The translations under genes and the position numbers were made by a program. DNA of 24,000 nt. Source: an uncultured Ignavibacteriaceae bacterium (GTDB lineage Bacteria; Bacteroidota; Ignavibacteria; UBA10030). The stretch spans positions 23,021 through 47,020 of the forward strand of contig CAZTKU010000003.1 in the NCBI GenBank assembly GCA_964614245.1, in the 5' to 3' direction. Below, one piece after another: positions 1,968-16,189 of this stretch. Numbering within the stretch: the first letter of the stretch is position 1; the number at the start of each line of letters is the position of its first letter. The notes under the pieces are model-generated. The model was not told the DNA's origin and did not search any database. It worked only from the letters and a program-made list of their open reading frames with translations.

Positions 1968-2144
1968 GATGTAGCCTCGGACTTCAGTCCGAGAGAAAAA
2001 AAAAGTCAGGACTGCAACGCGACAGGCAAGAAGTGGAAAAGAGATGTAGCCCCGGACCTCAGTCCGTGAGAAGGAAAATGTGAGAATCGAAAGGTGACAA
2101 GTAAAAAACAGAAAAGAGATGTAGCCTCGGACTTCAGTCCGAGG
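1968..2144. repeat. Three-copy hairpin repeat array with exact 75-bp period
   Basis: GATGTAGCCTCGGACTTCAGTCCGAG-like units start at 1968, 2043 and 2118. Copies 1 and 3 fold as (C)CTCGGAC-TTCA-GTCCGAG(G). The middle copy is degenerate (CCCCGGACCTCAGTCCGTGAG). Spacers are strongly purine-rich on the + strand. The array lies in the 348-bp gap between convergent stops at 1950 and 2299. Confidence 0.75.
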
Positions 2145-2298: not shown

Positions 2299-3807
2299 TC
2301 AGGTAAATTTGAACCACTGCTTGACCGCCTGCTGCAATTCGCCACGGTCGTCCTTGTGCCGAAACTCGTTCGTGTGTGAATCGTACGTGTACACTTTCTC
2401 CCACTCCCCGGCATTCTTTTCGATCTCGCGCAGGGCGTTTAGAATGAATTCGAGCTCCCGATCTGTTGTCGTTGGATGAAGAGAAAGCCGAACCCAGCCT
2501 GGTTTCGTTGACAAATCACCCCCATCAATCTTGTCGGTAATTCGTTTCGACGTATATTGATCGACGTGGAGCAAATAGTGGCCGTACGTTCCGGCGCACG
2601 AACAACCGCCGCGCACTTGAATGCCATAGCGATCATTAAGCAGTTTGACCACAAGATTGTAGTGTATCTTCTCGAAATAGAAGGAAATAATGCCCAGACG
2701 GTGTTGGAGGTTGTCTGCCAGAATCGTCAGGCCGGGGATTTGTCGCAATCCGTCAAAGGCCTTCTGCACCAATTGTTGCTCGCGCTGCAGCATGAGCTCC
2801 GAATTCATCTGCTCTTTCAATTCAACAGTGAGAGCAGCTCGAATAGCTTGAAGGAATCCAGGCGTTCCGCCGTCTTCGCGCTCCTCGATGTCGGGTTTAT
2901 ACCGGTATTTTCCCCACGGATTGGTCCATAACACCGTTCCGCCCCCAGGCTGATCGGGCGAGCGAAGGTGGTAGAGTTGAGAGTCGAAGATCAGCACACC
3001 GGACGATCCCGGGCCACCGAGAAATTTGTGGGGAGAAAAAAAGATGCCATCCAGCTTCTCCATCGGATCAGCGGGATGCATATTTATGGGCACATATGGC
3101 GCGGAGGCCGCGAAATCGACGAGGCAAATGCCATCGTGCTCATGCATCAGTTTTGCCATTTTGTGGTATGGCGTGCTGATGCCGGTAACGTTTGAGCATG
3201 CGGTGAACGATCCGATCTTCAGCTTCCGATTTCTGTATTGTTGGAGCAGTGCCCCAAGGTCGTCCAGATCGACAAGCCCCTGATCCGTTGGCTTGATCAC
3301 ACAGACATCGGCAATTGTTTCGTACCAGGCAGTCTGATTGGAGTGGTGCTCCATATGAGTCAAAAAAACAACCGGCCGGAGTTCTTCAGGGAGCGTGCAA
3401 TGTTCTTTGAACCGTTCATGGATTTTCAGCCCAAGGATGCGCTGCAGCTTGTTGATCGCCGCCGTCATGCCGAAGCCGACAAAAAGAAGGGCGTCACGCG
3501 GACCCGCGTTCAAGTGCTTCTTGATAATCTGATGTGCAAGGTGGTAGGCATGGGTCATCGCCGTGCCGGTGATGCTCGACTCGGAATGAGTGTTTCCAAC
3601 CAATGGTCCGAACTCATTGAGTAGCCGTTCTTCGACGGGTCGATACAAACGCCCACTGGCAACCCAGTCAGCGTAAACCAACTCCTTTGCTCCACAAGGT
3701 GTCTGGACAGGATGATGGTGTCCGATGATTTGCTGGCGGAACCGGCCGAAATACTCATCAAGGTTTTTGTACTGCGAATCCTGCGATGCTGACTTCACGA
3801 TGGCCAT
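2299..3807 (-). CDS. Class-V aminotransferase-fold PLP enzyme (cysteine desulfurase/selenocysteine lyase-like, long form)
   Basis: The track ORF 2299..3828 starts at a TTG. I prefer the ATG at 3807 (MAIVKSAS...), which lies 5 nt after GGAAGGAG. PLP-lysine context FSPHKFLGGPGSSG and a C-terminal RGGCSCAGTYGHY motif. Last gene of the dsrC-containing operon. Confidence 0.8.
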   Translation of the reverse strand: MAIVKSASQDSQYKNLDEYFGRFRQQIIGHHHPVQTPCGAKELVYADWVASGRLYRPVEERLLNEFGPLVGNTHSESSITGTAMTHAYHLAHQIIKKHLNAGPRDALLFVGFGMTAAINKLQRILGLKIHERFKEHCTLPEELRPVVFLTHMEHHSNQTAWYETIADVCVIKPTDQGLVDLDDLGALLQQYRNRKLKIGSFTACSNVTGISTPYHKMAKLMHEHDGICLVDFAASAPYVPINMHPADPMEKLDGIFFSPHKFLGGPGSSGVLIFDSQLYHLRSPDQPGGGTVLWTNPWGKYRYKPDIEEREDGGTPGFLQAIRAALTVELKEQMNSELMLQREQQLVQKAFDGLRQIPGLTILADNLQHRLGIISFYFEKIHYNLVVKLLNDRYGIQVRGGCSCAGTYGHYLLHVDQYTSKRITDKIDGGDLSTKPGWVRLSLHPTTTDRELEFILNALREIEKNAGEWEKVYTYDSHTNEFRHKDDRGELQQAVKQWFKFT

Positions 3808-3830
3808 GCCCACTCCTTCCCTATACAATT

Positions 3831-4997
3831 CTAATTCTTCCTGATCTCAGCGATCTCTTTCACTGCCTCAATGGCGTTGTCGATATGCTTGTCGGTATTG
3901 AAAGGACCGATGCTGAGACGGACTGTGCCATGAATCTTGTCAGTGCCTAACCCGACATGCGCTTTCGGCGCACAGTGTAATCCGGTACGGCATGCGATGT
4001 TATGATCCACATCGAGCATCGTGCCAACGTCCCCCGCGTCAAAGTTTTTGATATTGAAGCAGAGTACCGGGTTGTGATTTTCCGAGCTCTCCGCGCAGTA
4101 CGTTACGACGTTTTCGATGCTTTGAATGCCCTTCCGGAGCTTGTCCCACAGCATCATCTCTTTGGCATGCATCTGTTCCAGCCCGTTCTCAAGGACCCAT
4201 TTCACTCCCGCGTGCAGCCCTGCAACACCAAGCAGGTTGAGCGTACCGCACTCAAGGCGATAGGGAAACTCTTCGAGATGAGTCAATTGTGCCGAGCGCA
4301 CTCCCGTGCCGCCAAACCGGGTATACTTAACCGGTACATTTTCCATCACATATGAGCCCCCGATTCCGGTTGGCCCCATGAGGCATTTGTGCCCGGTGAA
4401 CACGACCACATCGATTGCCATCCTCTGCATATCAATTGGCACCGTCCCGGCACTTTGGGTGGTATCCACGATGAACCAGACACCAGCTTCTCTGCAGATC
4501 TTCCCGATCTCAGCGATTGGCTGGATCGTGCCAATGACGTTGGAGCAATGATTCACCACAACCATTTTCGTGTTCTTCTTGATGGCACGCCCGATGTCAT
4601 GGGGGTGAACATATCCATGCTCGTCAAATATGACATGGGTGACCTCAATGACCCCATTCATCTCCAGATGGTGTAGGGGTCGTAGGACCGAATTGTGTTC
4701 CAGCATCGTTGTGACAACATGATCACCCTTTTCGGCCAGCCCCTGGATGATCATATTCAACGAATCGCTTGCGTTGTAGCTGAAGGTCAGTCTGTTGGGG
4801 TCGCCTCCGCCGTGAAAGAACTCAGTCAGGAGTTTTCGAGTATCCATGACGATCTCTTCTGCTTCCAAGGCTGCATCAAACCCTGAGCGGCCCGGGTTTA
4901 CACCATGTTTGCGGTAGAAACTGTTCATGAAGTCGTAGACAGCATCAGGTTTGGGAAACGACGTTGCGGAATTGTCAAGGTAGATCAATGTGCTCAC
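3831..4997 (-). CDS. Cysteine desulfurase family protein (class-V PLP, SufS/CsdA-like active-site loop)
   Basis: 388 aa with a GTG start at 4997 giving MSTLIYLDNSATSFP, the typical desulfurase N-terminus. PLP lysine in FTGHKCLMGPTGIGG. Catalytic-cysteine loop ACRTGLHCAP resembles the SufS RTGHHCA loop. Confidence 0.85.
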   Translation of the reverse strand: MSTLIYLDNSATSFPKPDAVYDFMNSFYRKHGVNPGRSGFDAALEAEEIVMDTRKLLTEFFHGGGDPNRLTFSYNASDSLNMIIQGLAEKGDHVVTTMLEHNSVLRPLHHLEMNGVIEVTHVIFDEHGYVHPHDIGRAIKKNTKMVVVNHCSNVIGTIQPIAEIGKICREAGVWFIVDTTQSAGTVPIDMQRMAIDVVVFTGHKCLMGPTGIGGSYVMENVPVKYTRFGGTGVRSAQLTHLEEFPYRLECGTLNLLGVAGLHAGVKWVLENGLEQMHAKEMMLWDKLRKGIQSIENVVTYCAESSENHNPVLCFNIKNFDAGDVGTMLDVDHNIACRTGLHCAPKAHVGLGTDKIHGTVRLSIGPFNTDKHIDNAIEAVKEIAEIRKN

Positions 4998-5036
4998 GGT
5001 ATTCTATTCATTGTAGTGAATCGGGGAAAGAATGGA

Positions 5037-6335
5037 CTATGCAAGCACCAAGGCATCGGCGACAACTTCTGCCAGCGTCTTGATGTTCACGCCGAGCTTG
5101 AACTTGTTGTTGATCTGAATCAACTGGTCGACGCAGTTGTGACAGGGTGTTACAACCGTCGAGGCACTCGTTTTCCGAATCTGATCCGCCTTGATCTCGG
5201 CGATTTTCATCCGCCGGTCTCCATACTCACTCATGGAAAGCTGACCGCCACCGCCGCCACAGCAGAAATTATCGACACCGTGTGGCGTCATCTCGACAAG
5301 CGTGCTGGCCGCATGGCTTAGGACGAACCGCTGTTCGTCAATGACACCCCCTTCTCTCACGAGGTTGCATGGATCGTGCAACGTCATCACCTCCTGGTTC
5401 TTCTTCTTGTCGAGCGTGATCTTCCCGTCCCGAACATATTCGGCGAGGAGTTCTACCGAAGTGATGGTATTGAAAGAAAACGGGCGTTGAAGGTAGTTCG
5501 GTGCCTCCCAGCGAAAAGCCCGCGAGCCGTGACCACACTCAGCGAGCACACATCGTTTTGCCCCGATGGTTTCCATCTCATCGTGGAGCCTCTGAGCGAT
5601 GATGACTGCTTCTTCCAGGTTGCAGGAGAAATATGCATAGTTTGTGACGTCATACATGGACGTCGACAGCGTCCAGCTCTCTTTTGCGGCATAGAAAACC
5701 TTTGCCATCGCTGAAATCGAGAGGGGGAAGAACTTCGGTTCCCGCGGATTGAGAGTGTACAGAATCTTCGCCCCGACCTGATTGAGTGGGATAGACGCCT
5801 TTGGGTCGTTCACTTCGTCTCTGAGTTCATCCTCCAGCCACGAGATTGTGCTGACAAACTCATCGGTCGGAATAGCCATGTTGTTGCCGGTTTGAAGAGC
5901 GGCGTTGACGGTCGACTGCAGGGTTGCAGGCACGAGCGACATCGCGGCAAGCATTGCTCTCCCCGTTCGTACGACGTACGTAATGTCGACACCGATGGAA
6001 CAATGCATCGTGCATCTTCCACATAATGTACACGAACCGAACAACAAGTCGACCATCTCGTTTACTGTTGCATCGTCGAGCTCACGGGCACCAACAAGAC
6101 GAGGAAACACCCTGCCAGTGAAAGTGCAATAGCGCTGGTAGATGGAAGAGACGAGGGCAACTTTTGCCGCAGGAATAAATCGTTCGTCTTTCATGGCAAG
6201 ATAGTACATACAGCTTTCCGCACACAGTCCGCAGTGAACGCAGCTGTTCAGGTGCGACTCGAGTTGGCTATCCTTCGGCTCAGCGAGAATCCTGAGGGCC
6301 TTTCGGTGTTCCGCGGAAAGATCGCTCATACGCAT
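5037..6335 (-). CDS. DsrK/HdrD-like (Fe-S)-binding protein with CCG domain (heterodisulfide-reductase-type catalytic subunit)
   Basis: 432 aa. Two ferredoxin-type CxxCxxCxxxC motifs (CVHCGLCAESC, CTLCGRCTMHC). C-terminal CCG signature DPCNL...NFCCGGGGG...TPCHNC. The ATG lies 3 nt after the stop of the upstream membrane-subunit gene. Confidence 0.8.
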   Translation of the reverse strand: MRMSDLSAEHRKALRILAEPKDSQLESHLNSCVHCGLCAESCMYYLAMKDERFIPAAKVALVSSIYQRYCTFTGRVFPRLVGARELDDATVNEMVDLLFGSCTLCGRCTMHCSIGVDITYVVRTGRAMLAAMSLVPATLQSTVNAALQTGNNMAIPTDEFVSTISWLEDELRDEVNDPKASIPLNQVGAKILYTLNPREPKFFPLSISAMAKVFYAAKESWTLSTSMYDVTNYAYFSCNLEEAVIIAQRLHDEMETIGAKRCVLAECGHGSRAFRWEAPNYLQRPFSFNTITSVELLAEYVRDGKITLDKKKNQEVMTLHDPCNLVREGGVIDEQRFVLSHAASTLVEMTPHGVDNFCCGGGGGQLSMSEYGDRRMKIAEIKADQIRKTSASTVVTPCHNCVDQLIQINNKFKLGVNIKTLAEVVADALVLA

Positions 6336-6338
6336 CGT

Positions 6339-6959
6339 TCACGATTTCTTGAGAGGCCAGACTCCACGCCAGCCATAGAACAGGCCAAGATGATACCGCG
6401 CGGCAAAGAAATAGAGTGCATGTTTCAACTTCCCAAGGGGGAGGTACAGCAACAGGAGGCTCGCGGAAACGAAATAGAATGGTGCAAAGGCCCCTGAGAC
6501 CAGCATAACCAGGGTGGATATCTGGAGGAGCGTCACAAGGACATTCGATACGTAGTCATCAAGGTTAGACAGACCCCTGAGTTTCGGGAGTACCATTCTC
6601 TTGGTGAGTATCCCGATCCCGCTGAGCCCTGACACTGCGAGAATGCCGGTCACGCTCCACAGTAAAAACCCCTCAATGTGCGCATTCAGGAGCAGCGGGA
6701 AGAAAAGTCCGACGGAGACAAATGTCCCGGCGTGGTATAGCAACCCTGCCGTATACGTTGGCAGATGGAGATAGGCAGACTCTTTCTTTCCCGGGCTCAT
6801 CGCTCCCAGGAAAGAGTAGGTGATCGCGGGCGCCAAATTGCCTCTGCGCTGGGAAAAATCTTTTGGAGGTCCCAAGCGGACAATCCTGACAAAATGATAG
6901 AACAGGCTCGTCAGGCAGAGGAAAAGGGCGGTTAGTGCGAGATAGTGGTACCAGGACAT
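6339..6959 (-). CDS. Polytopic membrane protein, NarI/DsrM/HdrE-like putative heme-b subunit
   Basis: 206 aa with about 5 hydrophobic helices and several membrane-embedded His residues. Positioned directly between dsrC and the DsrK-like gene, as DsrM/HmeC-type partners are. The assignment rests on context plus topology rather than a diagnostic motif. Confidence 0.6.
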   Translation of the reverse strand: MSWYHYLALTALFLCLTSLFYHFVRIVRLGPPKDFSQRRGNLAPAITYSFLGAMSPGKKESAYLHLPTYTAGLLYHAGTFVSVGLFFPLLLNAHIEGFLLWSVTGILAVSGLSGIGILTKRMVLPKLRGLSNLDDYVSNVLVTLLQISTLVMLVSGAFAPFYFVSASLLLLYLPLGKLKHALYFFAARYHLGLFYGWRGVWPLKKS

Positions 6960-6974
6960 GCAGGTTTGATCCCC

Positions 6975-7292
6975 CTAGACACAACCGTCTGGCTTCGGCA
7001 GGCCCGCAACCCGACACGCTCCGCGCGCCGGGCCAAGCGGGAACAGCTGGTAAATCTCCTTGAGCTTTATGCCAGTTACCTGGCAGATCGACCGGATCAT
7101 TGGCGCCATCCCCTTCTCTTCCCAGTTCTTGCGGATATACTTCACGATCGCCCAGTGCTTATCGTTCATCTCTGTAATGCCGTCGTGCTTCGCGATGAGC
7201 CGGGCGACCTCCTCATTCCAAAGGTAAGGGTCTGACAGAAAACCGTCGCCATCTACCTCAAAAACTCTTCCGTCGATTTCCATGGTTGACAT
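6975..7292 (-). CDS. dsrC: DsrC-type sulfur-relay protein (TusE/DsrC/DsvC family, two-cysteine C-terminal arm)
   Basis: 105 aa. The C-terminus ...ARGACRVAGLPKPDGCV carries both conserved cysteines (the penultimate Cys, and a second Cys 10 residues upstream in the C-x10-C-V pattern). This distinguishes DsrC from single-Cys TusE. Confidence 0.9.
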   Translation of the reverse strand: MSTMEIDGRVFEVDGDGFLSDPYLWNEEVARLIAKHDGITEMNDKHWAIVKYIRKNWEEKGMAPMIRSICQVTGIKLKEIYQLFPLGPARGACRVAGLPKPDGCV

Positions 7293-7310
7293 AAGAATAC
7301 TCTCGCTCGA

Positions 7311-7565
7311 CTAACGACCTTCATCCGAAAGTCTATCAAATTCATCAATGATTTCTGAGGGTGAAAGCGGGGAATCGGGCAGAACAAAATCAGGGCAGAG
7401 ATTCAGGGCGTTTTTCGCGATGTAACGCTTGCAGAGGCTATAGGCTTCGATACCGCGGAGACAATAGACGTCGAGGAAGAACTGCTTCTTCTGCGGATCA
7501 GAGATGATGCTCGTTGTCTGAACGAGCTGGCAGGCGCTGTAGTTCGGACAGTGTGGGTCTTCCAT
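7311..7565 (-). CDS. Small Cys-rich hypothetical protein, first gene of the dsrC operon
   Basis: 84 aa with an ATG start and a GAAGGGA Shine-Dalgarno-like element 2 nt upstream. Five Cys residues (HCPNYSAC...YCLRG...LCKRY...LCPDF) and an acidic C-terminal tail. Sits 18 nt upstream of dsrC. I recognise no family. Confidence 0.5.
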   Translation of the reverse strand: MEDPHCPNYSACQLVQTTSIISDPQKKQFFLDVYCLRGIEAYSLCKRYIAKNALNLCPDFVLPDSPLSPSEIIDEFDRLSDEGR

Positions 7566-7781
7566 ATCCCTTCACGGCGAAAGCATTCCGCTGAGTACGA
7601 CATACTAAGTTAGAGGTTGAAGCCTAAAAATCAAGGCTTCCCGCCCGAGAATTCAAAGCGTTGGGAACACAATGCTGCAGGATGCAGAATCCCGATTTCA
7701 TCGTCGTCCCGCGGACTGGGCGGACAAGCGACGGCAATCCAGGTGATCGAGCGAACTCTCATGACTGCATGTTGTACCTGC

Positions 7782-8567
7782 TCACTTCGTCGCCGGAGAG
7801 GTTCGGTGAACGAGTGTTGTGGATGCCTGGTTGGTCGGCAGAATGATGAGTTCTGCAATCTGCACGTGGGGTGGCCGTGTTGCGCAAAAAAGAACAGCGT
7901 CTGCTACATCAGAACCTGTCAGGGGAGTGAGATTCTGGTACACCGTTTTTGCCCTTTGCTCATCGCCGCGGAAGCGGACCATGCTGAACTCTGTCTCAAC
8001 AAGACCGGGATCGACGGTGCAAACGCGAATCGGTGTGTCAACGAGATCGTGGCGCAATCCCCTGGTCAGCGCATCAACTGCGAACTTCGTCGCACAGTAA
8101 ACGTTTCCTCCTGGATACACCTCGTGGCCAGCGATCGAGCCGATATTGATAATTGTGCCGTGGCCGCGGGCAACCATGCCGGGGATAACCGCGCGACTCA
8201 CATAAAGCAATCCCTTCACATTCGTGTCGATCATCTCCTCCCAATCTTCAATCTTCCCTTCGTGGAGCTTATGAAGACCGCGGCTGAGCCCGGCGTTGTT
8301 CAGAAGCACCTCAATCTCCTGCCACTCTTTCGGGAGGTTTTTGACTGCGGTTTTCACGTCCGGTTGTTTGCGGACATCGAGCTGGATCGCATAGACATCC
8401 GTGCCGTGTTTTGCCTTGAGTTCTTTCGCAAGGGCATCGATGCGTTGTTTGCGGCGCGCTGCGAGAATGAGGCGCGCGCCTTCCCGCGCAAACGCGTGCG
8501 CACAGGCGAAGCCGATACCGCTGCTCGCACCCGTGATGAGAACAAGCTTCTTTGTAAGAGAGATCAT
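7782..8567 (-). CDS. ydfG: Short-chain dehydrogenase/reductase, YdfG-like NADP-dependent 3-hydroxy-acid/serine dehydrogenase
   Basis: 261 aa. TGASSGIG Rossmann motif, NNAG, and catalytic Y-x3-K (NVYCATK). From memory, it aligns end to end with E. coli YdfG (DWEEMIDTNVKGL..., VRFRGDEQRAKTVYQ...). The 318-aa + ORF 7617..8573 is its antisense shadow. Confidence 0.85.
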   Translation of the reverse strand: MISLTKKLVLITGASSGIGFACAHAFAREGARLILAARRKQRIDALAKELKAKHGTDVYAIQLDVRKQPDVKTAVKNLPKEWQEIEVLLNNAGLSRGLHKLHEGKIEDWEEMIDTNVKGLLYVSRAVIPGMVARGHGTIINIGSIAGHEVYPGGNVYCATKFAVDALTRGLRHDLVDTPIRVCTVDPGLVETEFSMVRFRGDEQRAKTVYQNLTPLTGSDVADAVLFCATRPPHVQIAELIILPTNQASTTLVHRTSPATK

Positions 8568-8618
8568 GTCTGAGTAATGGGCTTAGGCGGAAAAGGTGAA
8601 TCTTACCAAACGGCAGGC

Positions 8619-8647
8619 AAATTACAAAGCAGCAGCTGGAATGTCAA
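8619..8647 (-). promoter_or_regulatory. Sigma70-like promoter for the SDR gene
   Basis: Minus strand reads TTGACA (8647-8642), a 17-nt spacer, then TAATTT (8624-8619), about 50 nt upstream of the ATG at 8567. Preceded by T7 and GGTTATA heptamer repeats. Prediction from sequence only. Confidence 0.5.
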
Positions 8648-8678
8648 CAACCTATAACCTATAACCTACAAAAAAAAC

Positions 8679-9824
8679 CTACACCCTCCCCCGCAAGATC
8701 TTCCACTGGTCAACGATCTCCTCACCTCTGACAACGTAGTACCGATCGAAGTTCGCTGCGGTCAGGCAAGAATGGTGTTCGAGGATCCGAAGCCTGTCCC
8801 CAACCTTGAATTTTCCTTCAATGAATCGCGGATCGACCGTGACGACCTTGCCATGCTCCTGTGAGAGGGTTCTGTAGTGGATATGGGGATGGAGCCGTCT
8901 GCGCTCGTAGTCCTCGTAGATGATGCCCATATCCATGTCGTTTCTGATGTGCGTGGGACCCTGATCTTTCGACAGGGCGAGCGCGCCGGCATCCGTGATG
9001 AAGTAGGAGGCTCCCGGTTGATGCGAGATCACCGAAGAAAGCACGGTCAACGCGCACTCGGCTATCCCACAGCTGCCGAGCATGACCTGTGTGTAATCAT
9101 AGAACGCATAATTTCCCGGCCGCGCCTCATCAATGCCTTTGAGACTTTCGGCGACCGACAGTACAGGGGTCGAGCCGATGCTGATCATGGGGATGTTGTA
9201 CCCTTTGTCTCTCATCCTCTCGGCAAACTCGATCATAATGAACCGCTCTTGCTCCGCGTACGCAAGGATCTCTGCGCGGTTGTGCGCGCTGTACGACTGC
9301 CCGGAATGGCTCAGGATTCCATCAAAGATAAGCGTCTTCGATTCACTCAGCGAACGAAGAAGTTCCTCCGCCAGCGAAGAACGGGGGTCAACACCCGCGC
9401 GATGAAACCCGCAGTCAACCTTGAGCCAGACGTGAATCCGCTGGCCGGTTACCTGCGCAATGTGGTCGAGATGGCCGTGTGCTTCCAGACTATCAACCAC
9501 GACCCGAATCCGCGACTTCTCGTACAGTTCTGCAACCTTTGATGCATAGATCGGAGGAAGAGGAAAAGCCCACGTGATGTCGTTGAATCCCGCCGCTGCA
9601 AACTGCTCCGCCTCGTAAAACGTTGAAACGGTGACTCCGCGAGCCCCGAGCTCCAATTGGTGGTTTGCGATTTCGATGCACTTGTGCGTCTTGATATGAG
9701 GCCGCAGTGCGACACCAAGGGTGTTCGCCCGGTCCTGCATCGCGGTGAGGTTGCGCTCGAGAATGTCGTGATCAATCAAGAGCGCAGGAGTCGGAAGTTC
9801 ATGAATGCTGGTTACTGTGCCCAT
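8679..9824 (-). CDS. PLP-dependent D-threonine aldolase / D-serine dehydratase (DSD1)-family enzyme (alanine-racemase-N fold)
   Basis: The track ORF 8679..10034 starts at a GTG, and its first 70 residues are Arg/Ser-rich and not protein-like. I call the ATG at 9824 (MGTVTSIHELPTPALLIDHDILERN...), the typical family N-terminus. PLP-lysine motif RPHIKTHK. Confidence 0.8.
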   Translation of the reverse strand: MGTVTSIHELPTPALLIDHDILERNLTAMQDRANTLGVALRPHIKTHKCIEIANHQLELGARGVTVSTFYEAEQFAAAGFNDITWAFPLPPIYASKVAELYEKSRIRVVVDSLEAHGHLDHIAQVTGQRIHVWLKVDCGFHRAGVDPRSSLAEELLRSLSESKTLIFDGILSHSGQSYSAHNRAEILAYAEQERFIMIEFAERMRDKGYNIPMISIGSTPVLSVAESLKGIDEARPGNYAFYDYTQVMLGSCGIAECALTVLSSVISHQPGASYFITDAGALALSKDQGPTHIRNDMDMGIIYEDYERRRLHPHIHYRTLSQEHGKVVTVDPRFIEGKFKVGDRLRILEHHSCLTAANFDRYYVVRGEEIVDQWKILRGRV

Positions 9825-10306
9825 AGCATTAAGGGAAAGTAAGCAAGAGTTGGAGTCAGTACGCTCTTGACGGGTTCGGTTTGTCCGCGAACCTGCTCGG
9901 TGCGAGGAACCGTCTCTGAGATTCTGTGTGATGCAGCACGGGAGTCTCGAACGGACCTGAGCGTGTAGCCGGCATATCGAGACGCGGAAACCGCCCCTCC
10001 TGAATGGCGGTTGCGATTCCACCGCCAAATCCACCGGCTAGTGTTTTCGTGCAACACAAAGCATCGCCCCGCGTTCTCCACTACAACGGCCTCCATGAGC
10101 TTGTCCTGCAGGTGCAACGTACGGAGGTCGAACAAGTCGATACTAGGATAGCGGATTTCCGGGACATTCTCATTGACCCAGTGCACACCAAGCCCAAGAG
10201 TTACAGCGGTCACGTCGGATCCTTCCTGTGCAATCCAAGCCCGTCTAGCTGGAGCTTGTCGTAATCGCCGGAGATATGCCCTTCAATGATGCAGAAAGTT
10301 GATCAG

Positions 10307-10335
10307 AAAAAAAAGATCGCCCCAAAAGGGCGATC
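10307..10335 (-). terminator. Rho-independent terminator of cassette A
   Basis: Minus strand reads GATCGCCC-TTTT-GGGCGATC followed directly by T8, about 40 nt downstream of the TGA at 10377-10379. Confidence 0.8.
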
Positions 10336-10376
10336 CGTGTAACAGCGTGTATGTCTACAAGAGGATTTAGACAAGC

Positions 10377-11600
10377 TCACTCAAACCATGAAACGATCTC
10401 ATAGTTACCCGTCGTGGGGAAGAACGGCGGCGCGTCAAACATCAGTCGCTCGTCATACAGATAGTTCTTGAGAAAACCGTCCTCCAGACTCGGTGGGCTG
10501 CCGCTGAAGGTTCCAACAGCCCCTCTCTTATTTTGCTGGATCCCTCCCAGCAGCTTGATCCTTCCCTCCACACCACGCGAGCCATATTTCTCTGCAGTAA
10601 AACCACCAGAGCGGGAGAAGGTCGAAGCGTGGAGATTGAAATCATTTGCATTGTTCGCGGTGTTGTTGGCTATCAGGATGTTGTTCTCTGCTACGAGACC
10701 ACAAATGTCATCAGATGGACCCAGGAGAGGATTTTGTTCATACACCAGGTCGTCATCAAGAAAGATGTTCCCTCTGGTGTTGGAGCCCGTGGTCCCACCC
10801 GCACCAAGAGTGACCCTGCCGTTGACAGTGCCCCAGGTGTGAACGTTTGTCCCGTTGGCATAGATAACACCGTTCGGGGCGAACGTCGAGAGGGGCTCTT
10901 CGCTCCAGGAGGAACTGACACCCTGTTTCCACTTCACATTTCCGTTGCTCTTGAATTCTATGTAGACAGAATCCGGACCGGTGAAGAGTTTTCCTCCATT
11001 GTTGGCAGCTGTCAGAAGGGGATCGAGGTTTGCTGGGAGGCTGACGCTGACACCGCTCTCGTATCCGCCCAGGAATTGTGGTTTGTCGACCGAGGGGCCG
11101 GTCTTGTAAATAATGGTTTTCAATGATGTGGTCCGTTGCTCGAAGACAGGTTTGCCCGCCACGCGCAGGTTGTCCTGTGTGTGCATGGGCCCCCATACCG
11201 TATCGCCCGTGATCCACCAGATTTCCCCCTCAATGTTACTGTAATAACCGAATCGTGAGAAGCTGCTCGGTTGGAGGAGGACGGCGACCGTGGAGAGATG
11301 ACCCATAAAACTGGCCGTTGTGACAACCTTGATCTGATTGACGTCGGCATCCGACACTCGTGCATTGAACGTGCCGCCCATGAAGGCTTTGTTTGCGAAT
11401 CCACCCCTCCAGGCAAAGTTTTCCCACAGTGCTCGAGCAGCCATATTCGTTCCAGCTGCAGCAATACTGTGTGCCTCACTTCCCTTATAGTAGCCAAGGT
11501 AATTGTCCATCGCTGAGCTGGAAACCTTGGAGATGTTCGAGCCTATCATCAGCAACGCAGTGCTGAAGCCCATAACCATGAGTAACGCCGCTTTTCCCAT
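10377..11600 (-). CDS. Large PilX/GspK-like pseudopilin-like protein (copy A)
   Basis: 407 aa with an ATG 8 nt after GGGGGAGGA. The N-terminus MGKAALLMVMGFSTALLMIGSNISKVSSS...AHSIAAAGTNMAARAL resembles the PilX_N pattern: a hydrophobic helix followed by an Ala-rich helix. The rest is Gly/Asn/Thr-rich and predicted beta-rich (GRVTLGAGGTTGSNTRGNIFLDDD, NNILIANNTANNAND), ending in ...YDERLMFDAPPFFP.... The function is an inference. Confidence 0.65.
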   Translation of the reverse strand: MGKAALLMVMGFSTALLMIGSNISKVSSSAMDNYLGYYKGSEAHSIAAAGTNMAARALWENFAWRGGFANKAFMGGTFNARVSDADVNQIKVVTTASFMGHLSTVAVLLQPSSFSRFGYYSNIEGEIWWITGDTVWGPMHTQDNLRVAGKPVFEQRTTSLKTIIYKTGPSVDKPQFLGGYESGVSVSLPANLDPLLTAANNGGKLFTGPDSVYIEFKSNGNVKWKQGVSSSWSEEPLSTFAPNGVIYANGTNVHTWGTVNGRVTLGAGGTTGSNTRGNIFLDDDLVYEQNPLLGPSDDICGLVAENNILIANNTANNANDFNLHASTFSRSGGFTAEKYGSRGVEGRIKLLGGIQQNKRGAVGTFSGSPPSLEDGFLKNYLYDERLMFDAPPFFPTTGNYEIVSWFE

Positions 11601-11616
11601 GACAAGTTCCTCCCCC

Positions 11617-12264
11617 TTATCGGTTTCGTAAGTTTCGTGACGCCAGGCGAATCTGCCGCCAATACACCTTGAAATCTGCCGAGTCCGCTGCCTCTGATGT
11701 ATACTCCACCTTCATCAACGGCGCCGGGCTCTCCAGTGAAATGTTGATCTCCATCGTATAGATCAACCTGGGATCAGGGACCGGAAACGGAATGGTGTCT
11801 CCCAGGGCATCGTAATAACGAAGGCTGAACTGTGTTACCCCAAGGTTCCATCCCTTTGCCGCATTGCCGTTGACGATGCGATACAGATACCGGTCGTGCG
11901 GATTCGGAGTGCTGGACAACTCAGAGGTGTCTCCCAGAGAGTAATAAATCGTATCCACAACACCATCACCGATATCACCGGGACTGCTTGGGATATCGGT
12001 CAAGAACTTGATGGCGTGGGAATCGGCACTGACAATCGCCGTGTTGGGTGGTTGGATCTTTTTGTAATCCTTGCAGTAGCCGATCTTGCGGAAGTCGGAT
12101 TCGACAACATCGACTAATGCCACAATGCTTTGCTGGAGGTTGAGATTGTTCTGGTAGACGGCGTTGGTTTCAATGGCCTGAGCATTCAGGCGCAACGCCA
12201 TCAGCAGAAGCACAGAGCCAACAACGGTGGCGCTGACGATATCGAAGATAGTACTAGCACCCAT
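11617..12264 (-). CDS. PilW/GspJ-like pseudopilin-like protein (copy A)
   Basis: 215 aa with an ATG 5 nt after GAGGTGA. N-terminal hydrophobic segment MGASTIFDIVSATVVGSVLLLMAL. This is followed by AVYQNNLNLQQSIVALVDVVESDFRKIGYC, which resembles the conserved helix-to-globular junction of PilW/GspJ-type minor pilins (recalled pattern ...Q..L....aR.al..l..DlR.AGY). Confidence 0.65.
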   Translation of the reverse strand: MGASTIFDIVSATVVGSVLLLMALRLNAQAIETNAVYQNNLNLQQSIVALVDVVESDFRKIGYCKDYKKIQPPNTAIVSADSHAIKFLTDIPSSPGDIGDGVVDTIYYSLGDTSELSSTPNPHDRYLYRIVNGNAAKGWNLGVTQFSLRYYDALGDTIPFPVPDPRLIYTMEINISLESPAPLMKVEYTSEAADSADFKVYWRQIRLASRNLRNR

Positions 12265-12272
12265 GGTTCACC

Positions 12273-12764
12273 TCACCGGAATGACCAGTAGCTGAAAATG
12301 TAAGACATCTTCACCGTGTCCTGAGCGTTATCCGCTTTGACAAACACCGTGAGCTTCTTGTTCCATGTGCGACCGCTGGCTGTGCCGTTGGGATCAGATG
12401 TGTCAGTATACGCAACCGTGCCCCATCTCTTGAAAGCGTCGACACCCTGGATGTGAACAGTATCCGTCCAGCCATTATAGTCGTCGAAGTCGTCAAAGGT
12501 ATCACGCGTTGTCTCACCCGCCTCCTTGCCGAGCGTCGAACTCAACTCATTCGTGCTCAAGGCGAGGCTGTCAAGGGTATTCTTGTCATACGCCTTACCC
12601 TGCGACTCTTCAATGATGGACATACCGAGTGAGATGCCGAAGATACCGATCTCGGTTTGTTGAAGGATCACGCCGTGCTGGCTGAACGTCCGGTTGATGC
12701 TGACGACGTTCGATCCCAGCAACACAATGGCAATGATGGTCAGAAGCGTTTGACCCGTATTCAT
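12273..12764 (-). CDS. Small PilV/GspI-like pseudopilin-like protein (copy A)
   Basis: 163 aa. The N-terminus MNTG-QTLLTIIAIVLLGS resembles a class-III (prepilin) signal, G then Q-T-L-L, but has Thr instead of Glu at +5 and only a 4-residue leader. AGGAAGG lies 9 nt upstream of the ATG. Confidence 0.65.
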   Translation of the reverse strand: MNTGQTLLTIIAIVLLGSNVVSINRTFSQHGVILQQTEIGIFGISLGMSIIEESQGKAYDKNTLDSLALSTNELSSTLGKEAGETTRDTFDDFDDYNGWTDTVHIQGVDAFKRWGTVAYTDTSDPNGTASGRTWNKKLTVFVKADNAQDTVKMSYIFSYWSFR

Positions 12765-12867
12765 AGCAATGCACCTTCCTGCAAGTCAGACCGAAGTGAC
12801 TGCTGTGCGGTACGAAATTCTTAGGTGTGATAACAAGGTCTGGCGACTCAATCCAACATCTCCACCT

Positions 12868-12896
12868 ATTATAACCGATTTTGAGAATAAGGTCAA
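12868..12896 (-). promoter_or_regulatory. Near-consensus sigma70 promoter for cassette A
   Basis: Minus strand reads TTGACC (12896-12891), an exactly 17-nt spacer (ttattctcaaaatcggt), then TATAAT (12873-12868). The predicted transcript start is near 12861, giving a leader of about 95 nt before the ATG at 12764. Confidence 0.6.
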
Positions 12897-13153
12897 ATGA
12901 TCCCCATCACCGGAGCCCTGCAAGTTGACGAGCTTGACCGCAGGCCGGTCTCCGTGGATAAGGCAATAAAGCCAAGAGGCTGCAAATGACCCCGAAAAAC
13001 ACAGCTTTCTGTAGCAGGTGGGAATTGTGAATGTTTGCGCTTCGGGGGCTCTGGGCAAAACCTGGTGGTCAATGCAAACAGCAAGGGTGGTTAAAGCCCG
13101 GAGGAAAAGGGCATCAGGTCAGAGTGAAGGAGTTTTGGCGGACTTAAAGCAGT

Positions 13154-13191
13154 GTGCCCGCTTCGGGTGATGCTTCCGCTGAAGCGGGCAC
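13154..13191 (-). terminator. Strong hairpin downstream of cassette B (candidate terminator)
   Basis: GTGCCCGCTTC (13154-13164) pairs with GAAGCGGGCAC (13181-13191): an 11-bp perfect stem with a 16-nt loop, 62 nt downstream of the TAA at 13254-13256. There is no U-tract on the minus-strand side. The T-rich run (gagattttatt) is on the + side, so its role is uncertain. Confidence 0.4.
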
Positions 13192-13253
13192 GAGATTTTA
13201 TTCAACGGGTGGAGAAACCCTTCTTTGGATCTAGGATAGACGTCCCTCCTTTA

Positions 13254-14477
13254 TTACTCGAACCATGAAACGATCTCATAGTTACCCGTTGTGGGGAAGA
13301 ACGGCGGTGCGTCAAACATGAGTCGGTCATCATACAGATAGTTCTTGAGAAACCCGTTCTGCAGGACTGGTGGGCTGCCAGAAAACGTACCCACAGCGCC
13401 TCTCTTGTTTTGCTGGATCCCTCCCAGCAGCTTTATCCTTCCCTCTACATTGCGCGAGCCGTATTTCTCTGCAGTAAAACCACCAGAGCGGGAGAAGGTC
13501 GAAGCGTGGAGATTGAAATCATTTGCATTGTTCGCGGTGTTGTTGGCTATCAGGATGTTGTTCTCTGCTACGAGACCACAAATGTCATCAGATGGACCCA
13601 GGAGAGGATTTTGTTCATACACCAGGTCGTCATCAAGAAAGATGTTCCCTCTGGTGTTGGAGCCCGTGGTCCCACCCGCACCAAGAGTGACCCTGCCGTT
13701 GACAGTGCCCCAGGTGTGAACGTTTGTCCCGTTGGCATAGATAACACCGTTCGGGGCGAACGTCGAGAGGGGCTCTTCGCTCCAGGAGGAACTGACACCC
13801 TGTTTCCACTTCACATTTCCGTTGCTCTTGAATTCTATGTAGACAGAATCCGGACCGGTGAAGAGTTTTCCTCCATTGTTGGCAGCTGTCAGAAGGGGAT
13901 CGAGGTTTGCTGGGAGGCTGACGCTGACACCGCTCTCGTATCCGCCCAGGAATTGTGGTTTGTCGACCGAGGGGCCGGTCTTGTAAATAATGGTTTTCAA
14001 TGATGTGGTCCGTTGCTCGAAGACAGGTTTGCCCGCCACGCGCAGGTTGTCCTGTGTGTGCATGGGCCCCCATACCGTATCGCCCGTGATCCACCAGATT
14101 TCCCCCTCAATGTTACTGTAATAACCGAATCGTGAGAAGCTGCTCGGTTGGAGGAGGACGGCGACCGTGGAGAGATGACCCATAAAACTGGCCGTTGTGA
14201 CAACCTTGATCTGATTGACGTCGGCATCCGACACTCGTGCATTGAACGTGCCGCCCATGAAGGCTTTGTTTGCGAATCCACCCCTCCAGGCAAAGTTTTC
14301 CCACAGTGCTCGAGCAGCCATATTCGTTCCAGCTGCAGCAATACTGTGTGCCTCACTTCCCTTATAGTAGCCAAGGTAATTGTCCATCGCTGAGCTGGAA
14401 ACCTTGGAGATGTTCGAGCCTATCATCAGCAACGCAGTGCTGAAGCCCATAACCATGAGTAACGCCGCTTTTCCCAT
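13254..14477 (-). CDS. Large PilX/GspK-like pseudopilin-like protein (copy B)
   Basis: 407 aa. Identical to copy A through residue 342. Differs at G343N, S371V, E373Q, D374N and E384D. Confidence 0.65.
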   Translation of the reverse strand: MGKAALLMVMGFSTALLMIGSNISKVSSSAMDNYLGYYKGSEAHSIAAAGTNMAARALWENFAWRGGFANKAFMGGTFNARVSDADVNQIKVVTTASFMGHLSTVAVLLQPSSFSRFGYYSNIEGEIWWITGDTVWGPMHTQDNLRVAGKPVFEQRTTSLKTIIYKTGPSVDKPQFLGGYESGVSVSLPANLDPLLTAANNGGKLFTGPDSVYIEFKSNGNVKWKQGVSSSWSEEPLSTFAPNGVIYANGTNVHTWGTVNGRVTLGAGGTTGSNTRGNIFLDDDLVYEQNPLLGPSDDICGLVAENNILIANNTANNANDFNLHASTFSRSGGFTAEKYGSRNVEGRIKLLGGIQQNKRGAVGTFSGSPPVLQNGFLKNYLYDDRLMFDAPPFFPTTGNYEIVSWFE

Positions 14478-14493
14478 GACAAGTTCCTCCCCC

Positions 14494-15141
14494 TTATCGG
14501 TTTCGTAAGTTTCGTGACGCCAGGCGAATCTGCCGCCAATACACCTTGAAATCTGCCGAGTCCGCTGCCTCTGATGTATACTCCACCTTCATCAACGGCG
14601 CCGGGCTCTCCAGTGAAATGTTGATCTCCATCGTATAGATCAACCTGGGATCAGGGACCGGAAACGGAATGGTGTCTCCCAGGGCATCGTAATAACGAAG
14701 GCTGAACTGTGTTACCCCAAGGTTCCATCCCTTTGCCGCATTGCCGTTGACGATGCGATACAGATACCGGTCGTGCGGATTCGGAGTGCTGGACAACTCA
14801 GAGGTGTCTCCCAGAGAGTAATAAATCGTATCCACAACACCATCACCGATATCACCGGGACTGCTTGGGATATCGGTCAAGAACTTGATGGCGTGGGAAT
14901 CGGCACTGACAATCGCCGTGTTGGGTGGTTGGATCTTTTTGTAATCCTTGCAGTAGCCGATCTTGCGGAAGTCGGATTCGACAACATCGACTAATGCCAC
15001 AATGCTTTGCTGGAGGTTGAGATTGTTCTGGTAGACGGCGTTGGTTTCAATGGCCTGAGCATTCAGGCGCAACGCCATCAGCAGAAGCACAGAGCCAACA
15101 ACGGTGGCGCTGACGATATCGAAGATAGTACTAGCACCCAT
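14494..15141 (-). CDS. PilW/GspJ-like pseudopilin-like protein (copy B)
   Basis: 215 aa, 100% identical to copy A at both nucleotide and protein level. Confidence 0.65.
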   Translation of the reverse strand: MGASTIFDIVSATVVGSVLLLMALRLNAQAIETNAVYQNNLNLQQSIVALVDVVESDFRKIGYCKDYKKIQPPNTAIVSADSHAIKFLTDIPSSPGDIGDGVVDTIYYSLGDTSELSSTPNPHDRYLYRIVNGNAAKGWNLGVTQFSLRYYDALGDTIPFPVPDPRLIYTMEINISLESPAPLMKVEYTSEAADSADFKVYWRQIRLASRNLRNR

Positions 15142-15149
15142 GGTTCACC

Positions 15150-15641
15150 TCACCGGAATGACCAGTAGCTGAAAATGTAAGACATCTTCACCGTGTCCTG
15201 AGCGTTATCCGCTTTGACAAACACCGTGAGCTTCTTGTTCCATGTGCGACCGCTGGCTGTGCCGTTGGGATCAGATGTGTCAGTATACGCAACCGTGCCC
15301 CATCTCTTGAAAGCGTCGACACCCTGGATGTGAACAGTATCCGTCCAGCCATTATAGTCGTCGAAGTCGTCAAAGGTATCACGCGTTGTCTCACCCGCCT
15401 CCTTGCCGAGCGTCGAACTCAACTCATTCGTGCTCAAGGCGAGGCTGTCAAGGGTATTCTTGTCATACGCCTTACCCTGCGACTCTTCAATGATGGACAT
15501 ACCGAGTGAGATGCCGAAGATACCGATCTCGGTTTGTTGAAGGATCACGCCGTGCTGGCTGAACGTCCGGTTGATGCTGACGACGTTCGATCCCAGCAAC
15601 ACAATGGCGACGATCGTGAGCAGTGTCTGGCCAGTGTTCAT
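15150..15641 (-). CDS. Small PilV/GspI-like pseudopilin-like protein (copy B)
   Basis: 163 aa with one replacement relative to copy A (I11V). Codons 2-9 all differ from copy A at the synonymous third position. GGAGAAAGG lies upstream of the ATG. Confidence 0.65.
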   Translation of the reverse strand: MNTGQTLLTIVAIVLLGSNVVSINRTFSQHGVILQQTEIGIFGISLGMSIIEESQGKAYDKNTLDSLALSTNELSSTLGKEAGETTRDTFDDFDDYNGWTDTVHIQGVDAFKRWGTVAYTDTSDPNGTASGRTWNKKLTVFVKADNAQDTVKMSYIFSYWSFR

Positions 15642-15818
15642 TGCTAGTCCTTTCTCCGCTTCGTTGATTTCTCTTCAACGAGATGTTAAAGAAGTGCAGA
15701 AGATTCCTTGTTGATAACCTCAAAGGGCGTACCAGCGACAAGTTTGACGAACTCTGGAGGAAATTCTGGCTTTCTCAGAAACGACTCAGTTCAGACTCTT
15801 TGTAGGACGGAATCAAAC

Positions 15819-15833
15819 CGAGACAGTGTCTCG
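15819..15833. promoter_or_regulatory. Perfect 15-bp palindrome (possible operator) upstream of cassette B
   Basis: CGAGACA-G-TGTCTCG: 7-bp half-sites around one central base, about 180 nt upstream of the cassette B start codon in an ORF-free region. The function is speculative. Confidence 0.25.
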
Positions 15834-16140
15834 ATCAGCTACACACGCCGATGGGGGCAACGAAAGGTTTAGCTCGGCAGTATCATCCTCCGGGTTGCTG
15901 TGAAAAGTGTCATTTTGTAGAATCTTCACTTTGAGCATTCTCCGTCAGTTGAGGTCTCAGATCAAGCAGGGAACGAGCTACTCTCTCCGAGACGCAGCCC
16001 AAGCGCCATGAACGAGCTTTGTGCCAACCTGAACAATCAACTACGGCGCGACTCTTCTTGAGAGGTCTTTGAGGTGGGAAAAATTGAACGCTTTGAACCG
16101 GAGCGACAGAGAGAGAGAAAAACGAGGGAGATTATTCTTT

Positions 16141-16182
16141 GAGGCGATTCGACCCTGATGTCCAGTTGAGCGGAATCGCCTC
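16141..16182 (-). terminator. Hairpin immediately after the aminopeptidase gene (candidate terminator)
   Basis: GAGGCGATTC (16141-16150) pairs with GAATCGCCTC (16173-16182): a 10-bp stem with a 22-nt loop, starting 8 nt after the TGA at 16190-16192. There is no adjacent U-tract. A pyrimidine run (ctccctcgtttttctctctctct) follows about 10 nt later on the minus strand. Confidence 0.3.
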
Positions 16183-16189
16183 AGGAGCA

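Follow-up and report, generated by a model that had tools for sequence, protein, structure and literature searches.

A recurrent gene module joining DsrC, a DsrMK-like pair and a cysteine desulfurase in Bacteroidota genomes with no detectable dsrA

A stretch of 24,000 nucleotides (nt) from an uncultured Ignavibacteriaceae bacterium (assembly GCA_964614245.1, contig CAZTKU010000003.1, positions 23,021 to 47,020; hereafter the window) encodes an operon centered on DsrC, the small two-cysteine protein of dissimilatory sulfur metabolism. Its gene lies with those for a NarI/DsrM-like membrane protein (M206), a DsrK/HdrD-like iron-sulfur (Fe-S) protein (K432) and a cysteine desulfurase (CD388). A short cysteine-rich protein (g84) is encoded at the head of the operon and a second desulfurase-family enzyme (PLP509) at its end. 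The best-supported part of the picture is that DsrC probably serves as substrate for a minimal DsrMK-type complex, anchored by the NarI-like protein and independent of DsrAB. That the operon as a whole forms a DsrAB-independent, quinone-linked sulfur-reducing module is a proposal that we regard as evenly balanced between right and wrong. From the gene neighborhood, and from the TusA/DsrE-like genes of some relatives, we infer that the sulfur carried by DsrC would come from cysteine via CD388 and be reduced to sulfide by quinol.

Recurrence of the module

A search with a profile of K432 relatives yielded matches in no fewer than 565 species genomes, and the best 80 loci were kept for comparison. 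These loci (63-85% identical) belong to Ignavibacteria and to Bacteroidales metagenome-assembled genomes labelled Prolixibacteraceae, Lentimicrobiaceae and Rikenellaceae. DsrC, M, K and CD388 are encoded co-linearly in ∼70 of the 80, and the exceptions are mostly truncated contigs; since the arrangement recurs in so many related loci, it is not a product of chance. Clustering of the flanking open reading frames (ORFs) recovers K in 78 loci, M in 75, CD388 in 67, DsrC in 66, g84 in 29 and PLP509 in 14, while every remaining neighbor cluster is confined to at most 8 of the 80. As only these six genes recur, the module is a self-contained cassette in varying surroundings. When the phylum was sampled evenly, two of 401 genomes, the window genome and one other, encoded an orthologous K.

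More distant relatives, with K proteins 41-49% identical, also encode all four proteins but differ in gene order: at loci L104 and L105 a desulfurase gene converges on DsrC-M-K, and at L107 the order is desulfurase-DsrC-M-K. On a metagenome contig of the Joint Genome Institute (JGI; L106:1322-4081), a K relative 44% identical to K432 is fused at its C-terminus to a DsrC-fold domain devoid of the terminal cysteines. A Pfam-recognizable NarI-like gene precedes this fusion and a free DsrC gene follows it; no desulfurase gene was found within the 7.4-kb contig. An association that outlasts rearrangement, together with a K-DsrC fusion, provides the strongest genomic arguments for a functional unit. 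An earlier note, drawn up from the letters of the window, had grouped these genes as one unit, and for the four-gene core this grouping holds in close and distant relatives alike.

Five Bacteroidales loci are extended (L035, positions 4117-17290; L037; L041; L043; and, in part, L048). In all five a DsrE_2 gene directly follows the desulfurase gene, and four of them add TusA, an MvhD/FlpD-like protein, two HdrA-like flavoproteins (915 and 667 aa) and a ferredoxin. Upstream are encoded a Crp/Fnr regulator (5 of 5), a NifX-like protein (3 of 5) and a PLP509 orthologue. This gene content may point to a second electron input, located in the cytoplasm. Persulfide sulfur is established to reach DsrC from TusA and DsrE-family proteins (PMC3397948), and the extended loci therefore support a sulfur-relay interpretation. 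Neither TusA nor DsrE_2 was found in the window genome by tblastn with the extended-locus proteins as queries.

Paralogous M-K pairs also occur in the window's family, at L093:6787-11010 (genome G201) and at L092 (genome G281), 28-30% and 38% identical. Neither DsrC nor a desulfurase is encoded in the stretch fetched around these pairs, and the G201 pair adjoins a MerR regulator, a CMD/AhpD-like protein and a MobA-like transferase. Pairs of this kind may have thiol partners other than DsrC.

DsrC and the cysteine-rich protein g84

The 105-aa protein exceeds the cut-offs of both DsrC-family profiles, with 117.4 bits for PF04358 (cut-off 24.9) and 99.5 bits for TIGR03342 (cut-off 53.5), and shares 39% identity with the DsrC encoded at a Chlorobiaceae-type dsr locus. 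Its C-terminus, GACRVAGLPKPDGCV, contains CysB (C93) and CysA (C104), and lies one residue away from the Archaeoglobus fulgidus DsrC peptide DACRIAGLPKPTGCV (PMC10861901). DiSCo recognizes DsrC by a CysB ∼10 residues before a penultimate CysA and by an AGLPKPTGC-type arm (PMC8477390); the two C-terminal cysteines and a near-canonical version of the arm are present here. C70, C93 and C104 are invariant in 75 homologues. The identification of this protein as DsrC in the earlier note is thus upheld by both profiles and by both C-terminal cysteines. The usual co-occurrence with dsrAB is missing: the genome has no dsrA or dsrB match, and dsrA was found in none of 45 other carriers. Against the TusE equivalog model (NF008562) the protein reaches 63.7 bits, below the cut-off of 191, which places it outside TusE proper.

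Homologues of g84 are encoded directly upstream of dsrC in 29 of the 80 loci by clustering, and in ∼40 by tblastn. They are defined by five invariant cysteines (C6, C12, C35, C45 and C57, in sets of 34 and 21 sequences) and a conserved FCPDFVLPD motif. Structurally, g84 is modelled as an all-helical protein (predicted local distance difference test, pLDDT, 79); it has no Pfam, NCBIfam or Protein Data Bank (PDB) fold match, and Atlas gives only unnamed Bacteroidota clusters. Because many loci do without it, g84 is an accessory member of the module with which the core can dispense. Possible roles are those of a metal or Fe-S protein, or of a carrier that shuttles sulfur from CD388 to DsrC.

K432 and M206, the DsrMK-like pair

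K432 combines CCG and Fer4 (4Fe-4S dicluster) domains. Its best NCBIfam matches are TmcB (282 bits), HmcF (277 bits) and DsrK (NF045796, 229.6 bits), all below the respective equivalog cut-offs (735 and 750 for TmcB and HmcF, 400 for DsrK). The sequence contains two CX2CX2CX3C motifs, one full CCG motif (C323, C358, C359, C398, C401) and an ECGH motif with a non-ligating cysteine (C267, H269); C267 and the five CCG cysteines are invariant in 80 homologues. In an alignment of K432 with two true DsrKs, which score 724 and 712 bits against NF045796 and are encoded in Chlorobiaceae-type dsr loci of the phylum, E266-C267-G268-H269 is invariant. This motif corresponds to Cys329 and His331 of A. fulgidus DsrK, a cysteine that binds no cluster and a histidine, both strictly conserved and adjacent to the only non-cubane cluster (PMC10861901; bioRxiv 10.64898/2026.08.25.746951). 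K432 has the combination of a single CCG motif and ECGH that is described for DsrK, HmcF and TmcB.

The last cluster position is where K432 departs from the true DsrKs, reading C398-H-N-C401 (CxxC) against their C-A-I-D (CxxD, Asp500). Because a cysteine also occupies this position in the A. fulgidus paralogues of two-subunit dsrMK (PMC10861901), K432 classes by sequence with the DsrMK kind and not with the DsrMKJOP kind. The cluster aspartate is argued to suit an oxygenated perthiosulfenate intermediate (bioRxiv 10.64898/2026.08.25.746951); the all-cysteine site of K432 would plausibly fit a plain persulfide or disulfide substrate, such as a desulfurase would deliver. Sequence and profile searches of the PDB with K432 returned only 9OJN (a 1042-aa ‘iron-sulfur-binding reductase’) and marginal HdrB and HdrC matches, with no DsrK structure on file.

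M206 is recognized by its fold. In NCBIfam it reaches 31.4 bits against HmcE (1.4e-7, cut-off 275) and 19 bits against TmcC (cut-off 240); it has no Pfam hit, PF02665 (Nitrate_red_gam) included, and a PDB sequence search returned nothing. By sequence, M206 thus falls outside the DsrM/NarI family as delimited by PF02665 and the HmcE, TmcC and DsrM equivalogs. Its AlphaFold model (pLDDT 90) has NarI as all of its top eight PDB matches (template modelling score 0.45-0.54), and H22, H65, H76 and H180 are 95-100% conserved. The protein accordingly shows the five-helix NarI fold with conserved histidines that could ligate two haems. Alignment of its C-terminal helix with true DsrM over P-x-x-K-L-x-H (hhalign) is weak (E 0.0018, probability 15%). 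The third helix is glycine-rich and free of arginines, and broadly resembles that of the quinol-oxidizing DsrM-1/NarI proteins of bioRxiv 10.64898/2026.08.25.746951. The Atlas neighbors of M206 are named nitrate reductase gamma subunit. On sequence and model, M206 is presumed to be a dihaem b, quinol-oxidizing anchor. The family assignments of the earlier note were confirmed by profile for DsrC (PF04358), CCG and Aminotran_5; the nitrate-reductase-gamma assignment was not, as M206 lacks a Pfam hit and is NarI-like in its modelled fold.

Predicted docking of DsrC

Modelled together, M206, K432 and DsrC yield an interaction prediction score from aligned errors (ipSAE) of 0.78 in each of three runs, whereas the best of the three controls gives 0.00. 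Of the pairs used for calibration, 55 of 80 solved complexes and 3 of 110 mismatched pairs reach the 0.78 mark; ipSAE is the model's own confidence and hence a prediction. In the docked model, DsrC residues 100-105, the CysA arm, contact K432 at residues 197-205, 366-373 and 400-410. The first of these segments is the invariant LNPREPKFF stretch, and the last adjoins the cluster ligands. The model supports DsrC as the likely substrate of K432. A model of the CD388 dimer with DsrC reaches 0.07, which is neither support for this pair nor counter-evidence.

CD388 and PLP509, the desulfurase-family enzymes

CD388 scores 430.7 bits against TIGR01977 (cut-off 377), 324.9 against SclA (NF040779, cut-off 525) and 238 against SufS (TIGR01979, cut-off 475). 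It aligns over its full length with SufS-type structures, including 5B7S, and retains the pyridoxal phosphate (PLP) lysine (K204) and the catalytic cysteine (C342, in RTGLHCA), both invariant in 69 homologues. These features are those of a type II desulfurase of the EF2568 subfamily. Neither CD388 nor PLP509 (138 bits) qualifies as SufS proper, and SufB is encoded on another contig. The genome holds six class-V desulfurase-like genes; given these other paralogues and SufB, CD388 is not the housekeeping desulfurase.

PLP509 matches Aminotran_5 with 150 bits and aligns with SufS with insertions. It has a PLP lysine (K268) and, at the SufS catalytic position, C411 (in GCSCA); K268, C409 and C411 are invariant in 11 orthologues. 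In 14 of the 80 loci the enzyme adjoins the module; its gene follows the module in Ignavibacteria and precedes dsrC in some Bacteroidales, and these two placements suggest that the juxtaposition arose more than once. At L004, a close relative of the window locus, ∼380 nt separate PLP509 from the desulfurase gene. Elsewhere PLP509 is encoded beside a Cys_Met_Meta_PP gene with no DsrC nearby, and of 60 genomes of the order, 10 encode it, all of them lacking the module. Because it accompanies so few loci and also occurs in genomes without the module, PLP509 is a facultative partner, and the conserved core holds one desulfurase. The earlier description of the operon as hard-wired to two such enzymes was therefore overstated.

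Independence from DsrAB

Neither dsrA nor dsrB has a match anywhere in the 93%-complete window genome. An ordinary dsr locus lying just beyond the window is thereby rejected. Within the window itself, dsrAB, dsrJOP, dsrEFH and tusBCD are all absent, as had been noted earlier. The absence extends to other carriers, with no dsrA in any of 46 module-bearing genomes (the window genome and 45 others, among them three complete chromosomes). As a positive control, the same search detected dsrA in 65 of the 87 genomes from a Chlorobiaceae-like family, and in one from the window's class, which indicates that the method works. The failure to find DsrAB in the 46 carriers implies that the sulfur on DsrC does not come from sulfite.

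In a genome of the same class as the window, dsrAB is present (L095/L097, G361:C8:74299-84311; 588 bits against the dsrA model). About 6 kb from dsrAB, on the same strand, lies a DsrK-like gene whose product shares 31% identity with K432 and reaches 275 bits with the DsrK model.

Comparison with known systems

One close counterpart is the two-subunit DsrMK (DsrM-1 type; A. fulgidus paralogues AF0544 and AF0547), here compared as it occurs with DsrC in Gram-positive and archaeal sulfite/sulfate reducers. It likewise pairs a NarI-like with a DsrK-type subunit and has no J, O or P. It shares with K432 the single CCG motif, the cysteine of T/G/A-ECGH and a last cluster ligand that is cysteine instead of aspartate. 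A two-cysteine DsrC is encoded alongside in both cases, and insertion of its C-terminal arm is predicted for the present module. Unlike these systems, the carriers of the module have no detected dsrA and place a cysteine desulfurase in that genomic position. K432 also stays below the DsrK cut-off (230 bits against 400), and M206 is shorter and without a Pfam hit.

DsrMKJOP, the menaquinol:DsrC-trisulfide oxidoreductase (PMC10861901; bioRxiv 10.64898/2026.08.25.746951), resembles the module in that DsrC docks on DsrK, as predicted here. Both have a non-ligating cysteine (Cys329 there, C267 here) with a histidine two residues on, beside one non-cubane cluster, and both would pass electrons through a dihaem membrane subunit, a role presumed for M206. 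Unlike DsrMKJOP, the module lacks DsrJ, DsrO and DsrP and has CxxC in place of CxxD (Asp500), and the NarI-like subunit would have to be its site of quinol oxidation. The Hmc and Tmc complexes of Desulfovibrio (HmcE/HmcF and TmcC/TmcB) provide the best NCBIfam matches of M206 and K432 and have the same ECGH and single-CCG architecture (PMC10861901). The scores are nevertheless far under the equivalog cut-offs, and no cytochrome c or other Hmc/Tmc subunit is encoded adjacently.

On the desulfurase side, CD388 has the SufS-type PLP lysine and short catalytic-cysteine loop of the SufS-SufE/SufU and CsdA-CsdE systems. Type II desulfurases normally have a partner protein that takes over their persulfide. 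In the TusA-DsrEFH-DsrC relay of Allochromatium vinosum, DsrC has been proven to accept a persulfide from DsrEFH (PMC3397948), and some relatives of the module encode TusA and a DsrE-like protein beside the desulfurase. Unlike the SufS/CsdA and A. vinosum systems, the window encodes no detected SufE, SufU, CsdE, TusA or DsrE homologue. The literature searched contains no description of DsrC as a direct desulfurase acceptor, and the complex model is likewise unsupportive. Full-text searches also found no description of a DsrC-DsrMK-cysteine desulfurase module, in agreement with the earlier view that the combination is not a recognized, characterized pathway. The nearest published arrangement is a dsrC-dsrM2-dsrK2 set inside the dsrAB locus of Ca. 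Thermonerobacter (PMC6338057). The conserved operon, in a bacterium with no sulfite reductase found, suggests an undescribed route by which cysteine sulfur would become sulfide with electrons from the respiratory quinone pool.

Proposed mechanism and alternatives

In the proposed sequence of events, CD388 would convert L-cysteine to alanine and a persulfide on Cys342, and PLP509 may act likewise in the present operon. The sulfane sulfur would then pass to CysA of DsrC (C104) directly, via g84 in this genome, or via TusA/DsrE-like carriers in some Bacteroidales. With CysB (C93) this would yield a trisulfide, or a disulfide and H2S. Oxidation of menaquinol at the NarI-like dihaem protein M206 would supply the electrons, which matches the proposal made for two-subunit DsrMK. 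The net reaction would be cysteine + quinol to alanine + H2S + quinone, and in anaerobes that degrade peptides and amino acids it could act as an electron sink, or as a terminal reaction with modest energy conservation.

The two halves of this scheme fare differently. The earlier note had proposed a quinone-linked module leading from cysteine through DsrC to the membrane, and its DsrC/K/M half stands on motifs, fold and docking. The transfer from desulfurase to DsrC does not have the same footing: as the model of that pair stays at 0.07, the gene neighborhood is what speaks for it. Further points count against the scheme. The direction of electron flow and the form of the sulfur on DsrC are both proposals. 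K432 and M206 lie beneath every NCBIfam equivalog cut-off, and M206 has no Pfam hit. MenA was not found in the genome; the MqnA/MqnD family, a marker of the futalosine pathway of menaquinone synthesis, is present. The module is patchy (2 of 401 genomes) and therefore dispensable. Evidence of expression is also weak. In one metatranscriptome, short contigs 90-97% identical cover PLP509, K432, M206 and DsrC, and one crosses the DsrC/M206 junction; these contigs come from near relatives, their coverage is patchy and DNA carry-over is possible. For these reasons they were not counted as proof of co-transcription.

Among the alternatives, a role in sulfur trafficking or thiol homeostasis survives best, and we consider it unlikely. 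Here a TusE-like DsrC would feed tRNA or cofactor thiolation or Fe-S assembly, or would clear persulfides, and the DsrMK-like pair would keep it reduced. TusE of Escherichia coli is a member of the IscS-TusA-TusBCD-TusE relay, and the TIGR03342 hit places the present DsrC in the TusE/DsrC family. TusA and DsrE-like genes after the module in some Bacteroidales point the same way, as does the paralogous M-K pair beside MerR and a CMD/AhpD-like thiol protein, which suggests that M-K can serve other thiol partners. However, the TusE equivalog score is 63.7 bits where 191 would be required, and CysB, which TusE does not have, is invariant here. The patchy, accessory distribution is unlike that of housekeeping thiolation, and among the genes flanking the 80 loci neither a thiolation enzyme nor an Fe-S scaffold is recurrent.

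An oxidative mode is less probable still. The DsrMK-like pair would pass two electrons from persulfidated or reduced DsrC to menaquinone, a direction that has been proposed for DsrMKJOP of sulfur oxidizers. Cysteine sulfur would in this way supply the respiratory chain with electrons and would leave in zero-valent form or as a DsrC trisulfide. The same protein families do run oxidatively in sulfur oxidizers, variants of DsrM are discussed in bioRxiv 10.64898/2026.08.25.746951, and electron transfer from a dithiol to menaquinone should be thermodynamically downhill. Against this, rDsrAB, DsrEFH and DsrL, which would take the trisulfide onward, were not found in the genome, the conserved core encodes no outlet for oxidized sulfur, and the carriers come from anoxic soils, sediments and wetlands. 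Selenium handling, with CD388 as a SclA-like selenocysteine lyase and DsrC/DsrMK processing selenium for selenoprotein or selenium-cofactor synthesis, is very improbable: CD388 does belong to TIGR01977, the family of Enterococcus SclA, and JGI names relatives of PLP509 (not of CD388) ‘selenocysteine lyase/cysteine desulfurase’, a generic label, but the SclA score of 325 bits is below the 525-bit cut-off and no SelD above cut-off was found in the genome, leaving no known use of selenide.

Significance

DsrC and DsrMK are commonly viewed as accessories of DsrAB, and surveys equate Dsr-type sulfide production with dsrAB. Here the DsrC/DsrMK half is kept in hundreds of species and is linked to a cysteine desulfurase, with no dsrA in the 46 carriers searched. 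If quinol-dependent reduction of cysteine-derived sulfur is correct, the DsrC cycle would have a new input, an amino-acid persulfide in place of sulfite. It would tie cysteine degradation to the quinone pool, offer a simple natural system in which to study the DsrK reaction without DsrAB, and constitute an unrecognized source of sulfide in anoxic habitats. With regard to the evolution of sulfite respiration, DsrMK and DsrC may have functioned before DsrAB or apart from it.

A broader and more speculative proposal, which we think will rather prove wrong than right, is that many DsrAB-less anaerobic Bacteroidota, and relatives from other lineages, use cysteine sulfur as a terminal electron acceptor, by way of a desulfurase, DsrC, a minimal DsrMK-type complex and menaquinol, and thereby conserve energy or dispose of reductant. 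This would amount to organic-sulfur respiration. Sediments, soils and wetlands would then have a sulfide source that has been overlooked because dsrAB surveys do not see it, and the all-cysteine cluster ligation of K432 would mark a persulfide-specific DsrK reaction.

Operon layout and genomic context

The coordinates (Table 1) agree with the earlier description of six co-directional genes separated by gaps of 18, 15, 3, 39 and 2 or 23 nt. The last value depends on the start of PLP509, which is 509 aa long from a TTG codon and 502 aa from the ATG used in database record P0004.

Table 1. Positions of the operon genes and of the upstream repeat in the window
Feature	Position	Strand	Description
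g84 (84 aa)	7565..7311	minus	First operon gene; from the ORF list
DsrC (105 aa)	7292..6975	minus	From the ORF list and profiles
M206 (206 aa)	6959..6339	minus	NarI/DsrM-like membrane protein
K432 (432 aa)	6335..5037	minus	DsrK/HdrD-like cytoplasmic Fe-S protein
CD388 (388 aa)	4997..3831	minus	Type II (SufS-like) cysteine desulfurase, EF2568 family
PLP509	3828..2299	minus	SufS-like class-V PLP enzyme, facultative sixth gene
Inverted repeat GAAGCCT-N8-AGGCTTC	7619..7640	minus	∼55-75 nt upstream of g84

The inverted repeat sits in a conserved stretch and is common to the nearest relative, L010; the block around it is partly kept in L004, L011 and L012. It may be an operator or promoter element. 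The region upstream of g84 has no Rfam match, and a promoter and terminator scan gave no signal beyond shuffled expectation, the sigma-70 consensus being not significant. At the other end, hairpin repeats with a 75-bp period (window positions 1968-2144) lie between the convergent PLP509 and amidohydrolase genes and may terminate the operon transcript.

The assembly comprises 3.0 Mb, and homologues of its proteins are named for Ignavibacteria, Ignavibacteriales or Bacteroidota. Near-identical DNA occurs in metagenomes of soil, freshwater sediment and wetland. The 105-aa DsrC is the only DsrC-family gene product of the genome, and a second good relative of DsrK was not found in it.

The operon is flanked by genes for an amidohydrolase (211-1950), a short-chain dehydrogenase (7782-8567) and a D-serine-dehydratase-like protein (Ala_racemase_N and D-ser_dehydrat domains, 8679-10034). 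All three are kept in the nearest relatives (L004 and L010-L012) and not in more distant ones; a link between the module and amino-acid catabolism through these neighbors is possible but unsupported. Further along the window, a three-gene unit encoding proteins of 407, 215 and 163 aa, none with a Pfam hit, is duplicated in tandem (10377-12764 and 13254-15641).

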